Part shown: in pieces, positions 9,435-16,724 of the stretch | Numbering within the stretch: position 1 is the first letter of the stretch | Layout: the number at the start of each line of letters is the position of its first letter | Origin: a virus | Taxonomy: Duplodnaviria > Caudoviricetes | DNA: 64,000 bases | Virus record (IMG/VR): IMGVR_UViG_3300037067_012456 | Span: 1 to 64,000 of that record | Strand: one strand, 5' to 3' | Program-made: the position numbers and the translations under genes | Notes under the pieces: generated by a model | Database searches by the model: none | Told to the model about the DNA's origin: nothing | What the model saw: the letters and a program-made list of their open reading frames with translations, nothing else

Positions 9435-9755
9435 TTAATCTTTATCTTTTTTATCTTTCTTTTTATCTTTACCTTGATCTATACTAGGACCCTCACCTTC
9501 CATTTCTTTAGCATGAAGATCTGAATGACATTTCCTACATAGAATTTTACATTTTGCTGCTTCTTTTTTAAATCTAGCTGGTGCCCAGGACCATATCTTA
9601 TGATCTTCTTTTTTATGTTTATCTAAATGATGAAGTTCTAGATTTTTTGTAGATCCACATTTCTCACATTTCTTACCTTTAAAAAATACCTTTTTTCTAT
9701 CTTTTAACCAATTTCTTTGGTATTCTTGTTTATCTTCTAGTTTTTTAAAGGGCAT
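9435..9755 (-). CDS. HNH endonuclease
   Basis: CEKC...LELHH...LCRKCH...H. Confidence 0.8.
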   Translation of the reverse strand: MPFKKLEDKQEYQRNWLKDRKKVFFKGKKCEKCGSTKNLELHHLDKHKKEDHKIWSWAPARFKKEAAKCKILCRKCHSDLHAKEMEGEGPSIDQGKDKKKDKKDKD

Positions 9756-10224: not shown

Positions 10225-10566
10225 TTACTTCTTTTTATTAACTTTTTTATTACTCTTTTTAACCGTTTTTTTATTAATAAATTGCTTACAAAGTTTAAAA
10301 TTAAATCTTATTCCATACATCTCTTCATAATAAAAAAGAACTCTATGTAATTCATATGATTTATCATTACAAACTCTAAAATCTTCTTTATTCTTTAGAT
10401 GTTTATCACAATTATTATGAAAATCATCATATATAGAACATACATATCTTGTAAACTCATATTTTTCTTGTTTTGCTAATTGTTCATCTGCTTCTTGTTG
10501 AGCTTTTAATATAGCACAGGAACTAAAAGAAAATGCTATTATTAGTATAATTATTAATTTTTTCAT
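10225..10566 (-). CDS. putative lipoprotein
   Basis: MKK, hydrophobic stretch, lipobox-like FSSC. Confidence 0.65.
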   Translation of the reverse strand: MKKLIIILIIAFSFSSCAILKAQQEADEQLAKQEKYEFTRYVCSIYDDFHNNCDKHLKNKEDFRVCNDKSYELHRVLFYYEEMYGIRFNFKLCKQFINKKTVKKSNKKVNKKK

Positions 10567-11762: not shown

Positions 11763-11827
11763 TGAAGAATTATGAGATTCGAACTCATGCTGCCTGCCGG
11801 AGTGCTACCGCTACACCAAATTCTTCA
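11763..11827 (-). ncRNA. anticodon-less tRNA-like RNA (His-like G-1:C73 acceptor)
   Basis: acceptor GAAGAATT/AATTCTTC; D arm gtgt-agcggta-gcac; T arm atgag-TTCGAAT-ctcat; anticodon arm reduced to cc-ggca-gg. Confidence 0.75.
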
Positions 11828-11854: not shown

Positions 11855-11883
11855 AATATACATCATGTATACCTTAAAGTCAA
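11855..11883 (-). promoter_or_regulatory. sigma70-type promoter
   Basis: TTGACT-17-TATATT. Confidence 0.7.
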
Positions 11884-11916
11884 GTAATTTTATTATTATT
11901 TTTAATAATTTTAATG

Positions 11917-12009
11917 CGGAGCAGGAAGGCATCGAACCTTCACACCAGCTTACTAGGCCAATGACCAGTTTTCAAGACTGGGCCGATACCAGTTTCGGTT
12001 GACTGCTCC
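11917..12009 (-). tRNA. tRNA-Ser(UGA)
   Basis: GGAGCAG/CTGCTCC, G73; ccagt-ctTGAaa-actgg; long variable arm. Confidence 0.93.
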
Positions 12010-12012
12010 ATG

Positions 12013-12096
12013 CGGAAGGTATAGGAATTGGACCTATGTAGGAGTTACCCCGCCTCGGTTTAGCAAACCGGCCTATTACCACTCTAGCAACCTTCC
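12013..12096 (-). tRNA. tRNA-Ser(GCU)
   Basis: GGAAGGT/ACCTTCC, G73; loop ttGCTaa; long variable arm. Confidence 0.92.
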
Positions 12097-12098
12097 AT

Positions 12099-12169
12099 TA
12101 GGGCTACCCAGGATTGAACTGGGACTGCCTGGCTGAAAACCAGATGTTCTACCATTAAACTATAGCCCC
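12099..12169 (-). tRNA. tRNA-Glu(UUC)
   Basis: GGGGCTA/TAGCCCT; tctgg-ttTTCag-ccagg. Confidence 0.88.
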
Positions 12170-12173
12170 TTAT

Positions 12174-12245
12174 TGGACCTTACCGGTTATGCTCCGGTTC
12201 CTCCTGCTTGCAGGGCAGGGATTCTCCTGATTAAACTAAAGGCCC
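12174..12245 (-). tRNA. tRNA-Ala(UGC)
   Basis: GGGCCTT/AAGGTCC with G3:U70, A73; cctgc-ccTGCaa-gcagg; atypical T-loop AGCATAA. Confidence 0.88.
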
Positions 12246-12249
12246 TGTG

Positions 12250-12322
12250 TGTGTTGAGATGGATTTGAACCACCACCTGACGGGTTACAGCCGTGTATGC
12301 TACCGTTAAACACTATCAACAC
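12250..12322 (-). tRNA. tRNA-Tyr(GUA), short variable loop
   Basis: GTGTTGA/TCAACAC, A73; acgg-ctGTAac-ccgt; variable loop only 4 nt. Confidence 0.85.
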
Positions 12323-12324
12323 AT

Positions 12325-12355
12325 AAAAAAACCTAGGATTTTGGTCCTAGGTTTT
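12325..12355 (-). terminator. attenuator terminator immediately 5' of the tRNA operon
   Basis: aaaacctagga-ccaaaa-tcctaggtttt hairpin with a U7 tract ending 2 nt before tRNA-Tyr. Confidence 0.85.
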
Positions 12356-12381
12356 CGAAATATATTATAACAAAAATCGAA

Positions 12382-12507
12382 TCACATAGGACTTTTTATA
12401 CTCCCCAATGCTGCACGTTCGTTTTGTGAACTGGACACGGAGTATCTAGCACTATTTTGTAAATAGGCTCTCTGTTCGTAAGATTGATATGTAACTCGAT
12501 TTCTCAT
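12382..12507 (-). CDS. putative attenuator leader peptide (41 aa)
   Basis: MRNRVTYQSYEQRAYLQNSARYSVSSSQNERAALGSIKSPM*; ATG at the predicted +1; stop codon lies inside the antiterminator 5' strand. Confidence 0.75.
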   Translation of the reverse strand: MRNRVTYQSYEQRAYLQNSARYSVSSSQNERAALGSIKSPM

Positions 12508-12513
12508 ATTATA

Positions 12514-12541
12514 ATAATACCAATTATATCTAAAAAGTCAA
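12514..12541 (-). promoter_or_regulatory. sigma70-type promoter giving a leaderless leader-peptide transcript
   Basis: TTGACT-16-TATTAT with extended TGn; 6 nt between the -10 box and the ATG. Confidence 0.75.
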
Positions 12542-14183: not shown

Positions 14184-16724
14184 TTAGTCTTCCATTAAAT
14201 CCTTTTTACTTGCATTAATCCTTTTTTGTTCTTCTTTATCCAATATTTGATAAAAACACGTAGTATTTGGATCAAATACAAAATTAACTAATTTATTACC
14301 TTCTCCCATACGTTGTTTTAGAAAGATAACTTCAGCTATATTTTTATTTATATCATCTTGCATAGCTACCAATGATGCATCTTGGTCACTAGGATCAAAA
14401 TTAAAACTACCTTGTTCTAATACACTTTCTTGTACATTTGTTTTAATTGCTGTTTTTGGATTATAAAATGGTCTATGAATACCAAATATTAAATCTGAAA
14501 TTTCCGTTAATGCTCCAGAGTTTTTAAGATCCTGCATTGTTGGACGAGTATCTTTTCTATTAGCAACATCTCTTCTAATCTGAGCAACTAAAGACATATG
14601 AACACCAAGTTCTTTAGTCATATTTTGAATTATATTACAATTTTTTTCATAATCTCTAGCAAAGTTATCACTACTTTGAAATTCTTTTATTTTACCAAAA
14701 AGGTCAATAAAACATACAATATATTCTGTTTTAAGATGATCTTGTAAAAGCATTATTTGTTCTCTTATAGTATTCAAACTAGGACTTGGTTTATCATTAA
14801 AGAATAGATTATAATTTTTTTCAAGACGTTTTACTTCTGCATAATAGAATGCTTGTTCTTCTTCTGTTAATTCACTTATATTTGATACTACTTTTGTTAT
14901 AGGCAATTGACTATTAAAAGCTAATAGTTTATGAATCAATGGAGTTGTATTCATTTCCAATGCAAATTGGGCTGCAATAATTCCTTTATTAGCAAGATTT
15001 TTCATAGAGGAAAGACAAAATGATGAATTATGTGTAACTGTGAAATCATCATGTAAATACAAACCATCTTTATCTAATTCAAATCCAAAAAATTCTTCTT
15101 TTCCTAAAAATTTTATTTTAATACGAGAAATTATTGGTTCATATTTTTGTAATCTTTTTTCTGCTTTTTTTCTTTTTACTTTACAAGGTATTGTATCATT
15201 ATAGCCACATATTCTAATTCTCCAATAATATCCTTCAAATCCAGTAGATTTTATTTGTTTTTTTTCATATTTTGCGGTACAATAAAATCCAAGACTTCTC
15301 CCAAGAAATAATATATCATCTTTTAATTTAGGATATTTAGTAGAAATTTCATGAATTTTTGATGTCATATATCCATCAGTATCTATCAAACCAGCTAATA
15401 ATTGTAATCTTAATTCTTTTGAATTATATAAATAATCTTTTGGTATATGTTTATTATTTATTAAATTATATTTTTGTAATTTATTAAAAATATAATTTTT
15501 TTCTTTATTATTTCTTTTTATTCTACAATTTGGACAATTTGGTTTCTCTTTAATATTATCTTCATGATAAAGCATTCCTAATCTATTTGCATATTCTTTT
15601 AAATAAGTTCTGATTTCAATATCAGGATTAGATATAGCAGTAGAATCACTATGGCCATCTCCAATCCAACATCCAATAAAATATGGTTCAATAGAAACTT
15701 CTTTTTCAGGAAAATCAATAATAGCTTTATAACCTGTATACTGTTGAAAAAAATAATTTGGTTTTTTCAATGCATCTTCTACAGATATATTTAATATTTC
15801 ACCATTTTCTTTCCACCCAATTGCTGTAGTACTCTTCTTTTTTGCTCCTATTTTAGTTCTAATTGATTCTCCGGTTTTTCTTAATGATAAAATATGATTT
15901 TTATTCACATAATAATCATTTCCTCTATTTTGATGTATTTTATATATATCTCCAAAACCATGATTTAAACTTAATACTTTCCTTGGTAAAGAATCTGGAC
16001 CCATTAAAAAATCACCAATTTTTATATCTTCAATCTTTTTAAAAGAACAATCATACATCATTATAAGTGTTCCTTTTCTTTCGCATTTCCCCATTCCTGC
16101 TAGGGCCGTTATTACAGAAATTTGTTTAGGAGCAAATCCTTCTGTACACAGTTCATCTAATGTAGAGAATCCTGTTGTATATTTATCTATGCTATTATTT
16201 TTATTTAAAAGATATTGAGGCATTAAATCCGCAACACTTTGAAAATCGAGTCTTGAACCAGAATATCCTCTTTCTACTACAGAATCAAAGTAATTTAATC
16301 TTTCTTCTATATCTGATAATTTTGTAGATGGATCACAACATACACTAATTAAAGCACTATTTTTTTCTATTAATTTAGTTTTAACACTATCTACTATTAA
16401 TTTTTGATAATGTTCTTTAAAATTTTCAAGAGGAATTTCTGTAAAATTAGTAATTAAATTAGATAGAAATTCAAAAGTAACATAGAATTTAAGAGGACTT
16501 CCTTTTGATTTTAAAAGAATAGCATCAATATTTACATCCATTTTACTATTAGATGCTTCTATTACTGACCATCCAATAGTTTGATATTCTTTATTTCTAA
16601 AAACTTGCCAGTTTCCTTGTCGTACAAAGAAATCTCTATTTTCTGAATTTAAAATAATATTTGAAGCTAATAGAGCTTCATTATCATTATCTATTGGATA
16701 ATCAAATAGCGTTGTATCAGACAT
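14184..16724 (-). CDS. dnaB: replicative DnaB-like helicase (intein-containing)
   Basis: Walker A ALAGMGK|SS split by an intein; FALEM, AQIRR, RPTMQDLKNSG, KQRMG. Confidence 0.92.
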   Translation of the reverse strand: MSDTTLFDYPIDNDNEALLASNIILNSENRDFFVRQGNWQVFRNKEYQTIGWSVIEASNSKMDVNIDAILLKSKGSPLKFYVTFEFLSNLITNFTEIPLENFKEHYQKLIVDSVKTKLIEKNSALISVCCDPSTKLSDIEERLNYFDSVVERGYSGSRLDFQSVADLMPQYLLNKNNSIDKYTTGFSTLDELCTEGFAPKQISVITALAGMGKCERKGTLIMMYDCSFKKIEDIKIGDFLMGPDSLPRKVLSLNHGFGDIYKIHQNRGNDYYVNKNHILSLRKTGESIRTKIGAKKKSTTAIGWKENGEILNISVEDALKKPNYFFQQYTGYKAIIDFPEKEVSIEPYFIGCWIGDGHSDSTAISNPDIEIRTYLKEYANRLGMLYHEDNIKEKPNCPNCRIKRNNKEKNYIFNKLQKYNLINNKHIPKDYLYNSKELRLQLLAGLIDTDGYMTSKIHEISTKYPKLKDDILFLGRSLGFYCTAKYEKKQIKSTGFEGYYWRIRICGYNDTIPCKVKRKKAEKRLQKYEPIISRIKIKFLGKEEFFGFELDKDGLYLHDDFTVTHNSSFCLSSMKNLANKGIIAAQFALEMNTTPLIHKLLAFNSQLPITKVVSNISELTEEEQAFYYAEVKRLEKNYNLFFNDKPSPSLNTIREQIMLLQDHLKTEYIVCFIDLFGKIKEFQSSDNFARDYEKNCNIIQNMTKELGVHMSLVAQIRRDVANRKDTRPTMQDLKNSGALTEISDLIFGIHRPFYNPKTAIKTNVQESVLEQGSFNFDPSDQDASLVAMQDDINKNIAEVIFLKQRMGEGNKLVNFVFDPNTTCFYQILDKEEQKRINASKKDLMED
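15027..16085 (-). mobile_element. intein with LAGLIDADG endonuclease in DnaB
   Basis: starts CERKGT, ends VTHN before Ser; LAGLIDTDG block. Confidence 0.92.

Follow-up and report, generated by a model that had tools for sequence, protein, structure and literature searches.

Introduction

In the leader-peptide attenuators of enterobacteria (trpL, hisL, leuL, pheL and the multivalent thrL and ilvL), the transcript opens with a short open reading frame (ORF); the RNA has three helices that exclude one another (1:2; 2:3, the antiterminator; 3:4, the terminator); the stop codon is placed so that the terminating ribosome blocks the antiterminator; and in the peptide, whose sequence is free to vary, residue types matching the controlled genes are over-represented. 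In the T-box riboswitches of Firmicutes, a choice between antiterminator and terminator in a structured leader is likewise linked to how the tRNA pool stands; what it controls is not tRNA genes but those for aminoacyl-tRNA synthetases, along with amino-acid genes, and no ORF is needed. Phage tRNA genes are usually seen as passive cargo offsetting codon bias or host tRNA cleavage, and a full-text literature search returned no account of tRNA genes, or phage tRNA clusters, being attenuated, an absence that is not proof. The present analysis concerns a leader on the minus strand of a 64-kb stretch (hereafter the window), the first part of the 104.5-kb IMG/VR viral contig IMGVR_UViG_3300037067_012456. 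The leader resembles the enterobacterial ones in each of the respects listed (in the 1:2 helix and in residue composition, for the lineage of the window) and is, on balance, probably a translation-coupled (leader-ORF) transcription attenuator heading a tRNA-Tyr-led phage tRNA block.

Layout of the leader

An earlier note, made from the letters of this DNA alone, had placed here a promoter (TTGACT, 16 nt, TATTAT preceded by TG), an ATG at the predicted +1 (12507), a 41-codon ORF, a strong terminator just before tRNA-Tyr and, across the stop codon, an antiterminator exclusive with that terminator; all are present and correctly placed (Table 1). The A of the ATG lies 7 nt past the −10 box and is itself the predicted +1; matches to TTGAC-N16-18-TAnnnT are found genome-wide at 20:5 in favour of the gene strand. 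The residue counts of the note (4 Tyr, 8 Ser, 4 Ala, 2 Glu, 1 Lys and 1 Ile) are likewise correct, and the GC content of the ORF region is 38.9% (genome, 26.5%).

The hairpin of the intrinsic terminator (T; 12356-12327) is followed by a U run that ends 2 nt before tRNA-Tyr (12322-12249). For the antiterminator (AT; 12392-12377 paired with 12358-12344), the pairing as drawn in the earlier note comes to −10.1 kcal/mol and the most stable fold of the segment to −13.7 kcal/mol. Against 3000 dinucleotide shuffles of the 45 nt that precede the T arm, AT is stronger than expected (P = 0.002; by hairpin folding, P = 0.004).

Folding with RNAfold added a long-range helix that the earlier account had lacked: nt 4-20 of the transcript (12504-12488) pair with nt 120-136 (12388-12372) in a 17-bp helix, P1, that runs over the stop codon and closes a domain holding two hairpins, P2 and P3. 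The core fold amounts to −37.4 kcal/mol (shuffles −24.7 ± 3.5; z = −3.66), the core together with the terminator to −52.9 kcal/mol (z = −5.5). Since P1 uses the same nucleotides as the 5' strand of AT, the leader has three mutually exclusive helices (P1, AT and T), which share the topology of the trp attenuator.

Table 1: Features of the leader and of the tRNA block in the window.
Feature	Positions	Strand	Remarks
−35 box TTGACT	12536..12541	−	same box, same distance in L014, L015, L006
−10 box TATTAT, TG before it	12514..12519	−	16-nt spacer from −35; predicted +1 at 12507
Leader ORF, 41 codons, leaderless, no Shine-Dalgarno	12382..12507	−	TGA stop (12384-12382); TAA in L014, L006
P1 5' strand (region 1, codons 2-7)	12488..12504	−	duplex with 12388-12372, −19.9 kcal/mol
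P2 hairpin within ORF	12448..12469	−	A:U pair to C:G in L014 and L006, both sides changed, two amino-acid changes
P3 hairpin within ORF	12398..12445	−	11 pairs aligned with L006 by hand
AT 5' strand (last two codons, stop, next 5 nt)	12377..12392	−	pairs with 12358-12344
P1 3' strand (region 2; last sense codon and stop)	12372..12388	−	overlaps AT 5' strand
AT 3' strand, also T 5' arm	12344..12358	−	pairs with 12392-12377
Intrinsic terminator T	12325..12356	−	12-bp stem, 6-nt loop, U7; −15.5 kcal/mol; hairpin 12356-12327
tRNA-Tyr(GUA), first gene of the putatively gated block	12249..12322	−	first after terminator in all lineages
Rest of block: Ala(UGC)-like tRNA, tRNA-Glu(UUC), Ser(GCU), Ser(UGA)	11916..12245	−	next promoter-like site at 11883

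Conservation of the putative switch among relatives

Homologues of the leader were located with the gene of a Zn-ribbon protein, directly upstream of the leader promoter, as anchor. The following were obtained: L014 (706-nt ENA contig, leader 91% identical to that of the window; the same strain is present in run X3); L015, a third close lineage (promoter and first 15 codons only, open); L005, identical to the window over the promoter and the first 65 nt; and the distant L006 (161-kb IMG/VR contig, Zn-ribbon protein 77% identical; an identical copy, L008, comes from a metagenome), whose tRNA block is syntenic (Tyr, Lys, Val, Ala, Glu, Ser, Ser, Gln ... Cys, Leu). The DNA contigs recovered from sequencing runs at the locus are strain variants; a look for RNA runs that contain the locus listed none.

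In the window, L014, L015 and L006 the order TTGAC(T/A), 16 or 17 nt, TAnnnT, exactly 6 nt, ATG is repeated, while the sequences of the −10 box and of the 6-nt spacer vary. The frame from the ATG is open for 41 (window), 41 (L014) and 45 codons (L006), with probabilities of being open under dinucleotide shuffles of 0.047, 0.052 and 0.051, respectively, and in all three it ends in Pro-Met-stop within the 5' strand of AT; the remaining two frames of L006 contain 6 and 2 stops across the same span. With L006 counted as the independent test of the ORF, and with retention of the ATG by descent allowed for, the chance that its open frame, start and end arose at random is estimated from the shuffle data at about 0.003-0.01. 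Homologues keeping the terminator and lacking ORF and antiterminator, which would have refuted the reading of the earlier note, were looked for and not found; L014 and L006 keep the promoter geometry, the +1 ATG, the open frame, the stop inside the AT strand, AT, T and tRNA-Tyr. In L006 there is also an internal GAGG-N8-AUG at codon 25 (9470-9494, +), from which a conventional Shine-Dalgarno-led frame of 21 codons would run in the same phase; the window has no equivalent.

A stem of 12-14 bp with a run of U6-7 stands 2-8 nt before tRNA-Tyr in all lineages, and the antiterminator beats its shuffles in L014 (P = 0.017) and L006 (P ≤ 0.01) as well. The core of T is CCUAGGA/UCCUAGG in the window and GGCAUGGGA/UUCCAUGCC in L006; the AT strand co-varies with the T arm (GUCCUA/UAGGAC in the window, UGUUCCCAUG/CAUGGGAGCA in L006), each pairing being accompanied by a second inner helix. 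The energies of AT and T are alike within each lineage: −13.7/−15.5 (window), −15.9/−16.4 (L014) and −22.3/−18.9 kcal/mol (L006). One "amino-acid" change of L014, A to G at nt 115, gives AT an extra G:C pair. The parts of the leader and their conservation, co-variation and energetics are thus seen in the sequence and its comparison among relatives.

Further searches gave the following: GenBank phages, no DNA similarity to the region except in tRNAs; helicase search, distant, intein-driven matches only; viral contigs with a 20-mer of P3, nothing new; scan with the 139-aa neighbour protein, nothing new; Zn-ribbon alignment against metagenome contigs and viral contigs, nothing new; tRNA-Tyr pattern in viral contigs, metagenome contigs and genomes, only the L006/L008 phage. 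In the L002 (found via the helicase neighbour of the leader), L009, L011 and L012 types the Zn-ribbon gene is kept with no tRNA island behind it, and these are uninformative on the leader. In L002 (11026-11772), L009 and L011 (about 63% identity) the Zn-ribbon gene runs straight into a gene of 190 aa; leader and tRNA island are therefore an accessory insertion in some lineages only. A fifth Zn-ribbon variant, P0002, was seen, for which no contig was traced.

Conserved RNA and variable peptide

Between the window and L014 the ORF differs by 15 nt changes, which alter 12 of the 41 residues; as they are spread 6/3/6 over the codon positions (dN/dS about 1), the peptide is under no purifying selection. 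The same substitutions break 2 of the 43 pairs of P1-P3, where 7.6 are expected on random placement (P = 0.002); the 43-pair structure was derived from the window sequence and the test applies to L014 only. Most of them lie in junctions, loops and bulges (positions 22, 27, 34, 38, 74, 87, 102, 112 and 115). In P2 one pair is double-compensatory in L014 (A:U to C:G) and produces Tyr15Ser and Asn18Lys; in P1, 16 of 17 pairs are kept, with two wobble-compatible changes. The best-conserved part is the spacer with the terminator (1 substitution and 1 indel in 59 nt).

In a manual alignment with L006, P2 is identical (CCUCU/AGAGG) and P3 shows 11 aligned pairs, all of them intact although 3 differ in both partners and 2 in one. 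A covariance model built from the window and L014 found no paralogue, matched L006 mainly via the terminator (E = 0.002) and failed to reproduce the manual alignment; homology of P2 and P3 between the window and L006 is accordingly probable, not proven. The L006 peptide can be aligned only over its last ~12 residues, which overlap conserved RNA helices, and the 41-residue product has no homologue among 5.8 billion proteins and no PHROG match. A variable peptide over retained helices fits a leader whose translation matters and not its product.

Proposed mechanism

Here a start site, translation, an efficiency of termination and a direction of control are what we infer. RNA would be started by the sigma-70-type promoter at the A of the AUG, and the 5' end of such an RNA could take up a ribosome with no need of a Shine-Dalgarno sequence. 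Translation of the 41 codons would end within the 5' strand of AT, whose 3' strand is shared with T. A ribosome arriving at the stop would cover the AT strand, T would form and transcription would end; with the stop free of ribosomes at the time the T arm is synthesised, AT could form and RNA polymerase would read into Tyr, Ala-like, Glu, Ser and Ser.

Folding in silico with a ribosome-sized mask bears on two claims of the earlier note. That a ribosome at the stop hides the antiterminator was borne out: with the stop region masked, T is obtained in both the window and the L006 lineage. That stalling generally frees the antiterminator was not: in the window lineage most stall codons still give T, a mask over the Ser run (codons 23-27) leaving P1 and T; the 17-bp P1, stronger than AT, ties up the 5' strand of the latter. 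For the nascent window RNA, AT comes out as the most stable fold only with nt 1-35 masked. The P1 duplex amounts to −19.9 (window, 17 bp), −16.1 (L014) and −6.2 kcal/mol (L006, about 6 bp), and in L006 AT is the default nascent fold.

In the window lineage P1 would thus add a trp-like "1:2" state, with termination also where the RNA goes untranslated, and AT would be freed only by ribosomes on the first ~10 codons (Tyr7, Ser9 and Tyr10 among them), kept there by an early stall or, conceivably, in a queue behind a later one; in the L006 lineage the weak P1 would make AT the default. The net result would be negative feedback, efficient decoding lowering and slow decoding raising the output of the tRNA block. 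We therefore put forward, tentatively and at somewhat less than even confidence, that the leader is a sensor of decoding capacity by which the phage feeds back on its own tRNA supply, the Tyr-led block being transcribed only if the leader is translated slowly, e.g., on depletion or cleavage of host tRNAs, with three states (P1/AT/T) in the window lineage and two in that of L006. A link to host anticodon nucleases is purely conjectural.

Match between leader codons and tRNA block

The downstream tRNAs named in the earlier note, Tyr, Glu, Ser(GCU) and Ser(UGA), are present; its "tRNA-Ala" (12245-12174, −) is non-canonical. No ARAGORN call was obtained for it and the Rfam tRNA score is 44 bits; the T-loop is AGCAUAA, not UUCGAAU, the anticodon loop CCUGCAA (C33) is common to it and the canonical tRNA-Ala of L006, and G3:U70 and the UGC anticodon are kept. 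Another tRNA-like RNA (11764-11825, −; Rfam tRNA 41.7 bits, truncated anticodon arm, no ARAGORN call) sits about 20 nt past a promoter-like site, TTGACT-17-TATATT. At the other tRNA sites of the window (tRNA-Arg 7074, tRNA-Gly 2380, tRNA-Met 2250) a leader of this type is absent.

The note had also read the leader peptide as a mirror of these tRNAs, and for the window the match is significant: 18 of 40 leader residues are Tyr, Ala, Glu or Ser (open-frame shuffles 9.3 ± 2.4, P < 0.001), against a share of 22% in the long ORFs of the phage (binomial P = 0.001). In L014 the count is the same (P = 0.001). For L006 it fails, 20 of 44 residues matching the eight downstream tRNAs where 17.9 are expected (P = 0.27). 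Region 1 is without a tight run of regulatory codons. The mirror is therefore suggestive in one lineage only and unproven overall.

Alternative explanations

Several observations, the failure of the mirror in L006 among them, weigh against attenuation by translation of the leader. Other genes of the phage have ribosome-binding sites of the AAAGGAG type, to which the leaderless start is an exception. The comparison covers only two deeply separated lineages, so that it is chiefly L006 that tests the ORF independently. In place of the Ala-like tRNA of the window, L014 carries tRNA-Val behind tRNA-Tyr, so nearly identical leaders precede different blocks. The gap in P1 strength means that the lineages would behave differently without translation, and the conserved hairpins P2 and P3 inside the ORF are unneeded by a ribosome model. 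Between the Zn-ribbon gene and the leader promoter there is no terminator; T may thus also end the upstream operon, and it could simply be there to close that operon of replication genes. Lastly, L006 has upstream of tRNA-Gln (10419-10496, +) a promoter-like TTGACA-17-TATTGT and, immediately behind it, a terminator-like hairpin (12 bp, U run, 8 nt from the tRNA), but neither ORF nor antiterminator; hairpins ahead of tRNAs may therefore have another role.

In L014 (452-676) tRNA-Tyr is followed by a 76-nt non-tRNA spacer and then tRNA-Val (window counterpart, 12322-12174). In the window itself (290-357, −) a promoter-like TTGACG-17-TATATT is followed, ≤5 nt on, by a 13-bp hairpin with a U run before a protein gene, a second case of a terminator-like hairpin straight after a promoter.

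The main rival, which we regard as unlikely, accepts the AT/T switch but replaces the ribosome as its trigger by another factor (an RNA-binding protein of phage or host, an RNA, for instance a tRNA, or a small molecule that the P1-P2-P3 domain binds), the open frame being incidental. Selection on P1, P2 and P3, all unneeded in the ribosome model, speaks for it, as do an arrangement like that of OFF riboswitches, in which P1 closes a structured domain and AT draws on the 3' strand of P1, a core folding better than its shuffles (z = −3.66), the GC content (39%, genome 26.5%) and a leaderless start atypical of the phage. It has to leave to chance the recurrence in L006 of the open frame, the +1 ATG and the stop inside AT (about 0.003-0.01, as estimated above); moreover, the window-L014 substitutions gather in junctions, loops and bulges, the opposite of what a ligand-binding aptamer would show, and a 17-bp P1 is too stable for a ligand to tip. 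No T-box, riboswitch or leader family is matched at E ≤ 1, the Rfam Trp, His, Leu, Thr and Phe leader families having been compared with the window, L014 and L006 leaders. Two specific forms were rejected: a metabolite riboswitch of the OFF type (stems kept, substitutions in junctions and loops; P1 of 17 bp, not marginal) and a T-box (no Rfam match at E ≤ 1; no UGGN bulge seen in the antiterminator).

It is improbable, in our view, that the element is a stand-alone gene of a structured small RNA (sRNA) with its own promoter and a constitutive terminator that also ends the replication-gene operon, the tRNAs being made by leaky read-through and RNase P, and AT and ORF having no function. The usual anatomy of an sRNA gene is indeed there (promoter, closed multi-hairpin RNA of ~135 nt, AU-rich spacer, terminator); the stretch from the Zn-ribbon gene to the promoter is terminator-free, the ORF-less hairpin before tRNA-Gln in L006 would fit, and the tRNA cluster of phage T4 carries stable small RNAs. 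In such a gene, though, a pairing that competes with T should be selected against, yet AT is found beyond chance in three lineages, co-varying and of matched stability; the features of the ORF are conserved; and in no lineage do the 2-8 nt after the terminator provide tRNA-Tyr with its own promoter.

A conventional gene for a small protein, with the 41-residue product itself functional, is highly improbable. In its favour, three lineages retain an open frame that has a promoter and a terminator to itself. Against it, strains that are 91% identical differ at 12 of the 41 residues and show no bias towards the third codon position, the L006 peptide aligns only where conserved helices overlap it, the databases searched hold no homologue or PHROG match, and the peptide is polar, which rules out a type I toxin. 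A type I toxin mRNA with a 5'-3' lock was discarded on the same ground.

An internal promoter was also considered: the extended −10-like TGTTATAAT at 12372-12364 (−), in the spacer between P1 and the terminator, reads TATCAT in L014 and is not conserved; it was rejected on this ground and because a transcript from there would still hold the whole terminator.

Neighbouring genes and source of the sequence

Genes of the window lie almost all on the minus strand. The upstream Zn-ribbon gene encodes 56 residues. A DnaB-like helicase gene (window 14184-16724, −; L005 3-2042) appears to carry an intein: the L005 homologue gives Pfam matches Hom_end and Hom_end_hint, and residues ~200-460 match "terminase" PHROGs and intein-annotated phage helicases. 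CheckV completeness of the 104.5-kb contig is 38%; the source is therefore probably a very large phage.

Comparison with known systems

Among described elements, a terminated phage leader would resemble the attenuator-derived sRNA rnTrpL of Sinorhizobium (PMC6614838) in being released as a structured RNA of ~180 nt able to act in trans. Action of this kind might account for the conservation of P2 and P3; in contrast to rnTrpL, no target or trans function can be inferred for the phage leader.

Small stable RNAs co-transcribed with the tRNA cluster of phage T4 are structured non-tRNA RNAs adjoining phage tRNAs, as here, and a cut by RNase P at the 5' end of the tRNA could release the leader. To our knowledge, no ORF and no terminator/antiterminator switch has been described for the T4 RNAs.

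In comparison with the T-boxes, the phage leader is without a recognised specifier loop or T-box bulge. From the enterobacterial attenuators it differs in that its ORF is leaderless, long (41-45 codons) and holds two conserved hairpins, that regions 1 and 2 are ~100 nt apart with no tight run of regulatory codons in the former, that of the two lineages one has a strong 1:2 helix and the other almost none, and that its sequence is not similar to any of the Rfam leader families. By analogy the phage leader probably works like the leader-peptide attenuators of amino-acid operons, although it belongs to no Rfam leader, T-box or riboswitch family; the genes under its control would be tRNAs, not biosynthetic enzymes. 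If this is true, the phage measures translation and tunes its tRNA output, and when and why phages need tRNAs of their own becomes directly testable with simple reporters; the classical logic of attenuation would then be applied to a new class of genes, and leader-peptide attenuation would extend from amino-acid supply to tRNA supply, and to viruses.

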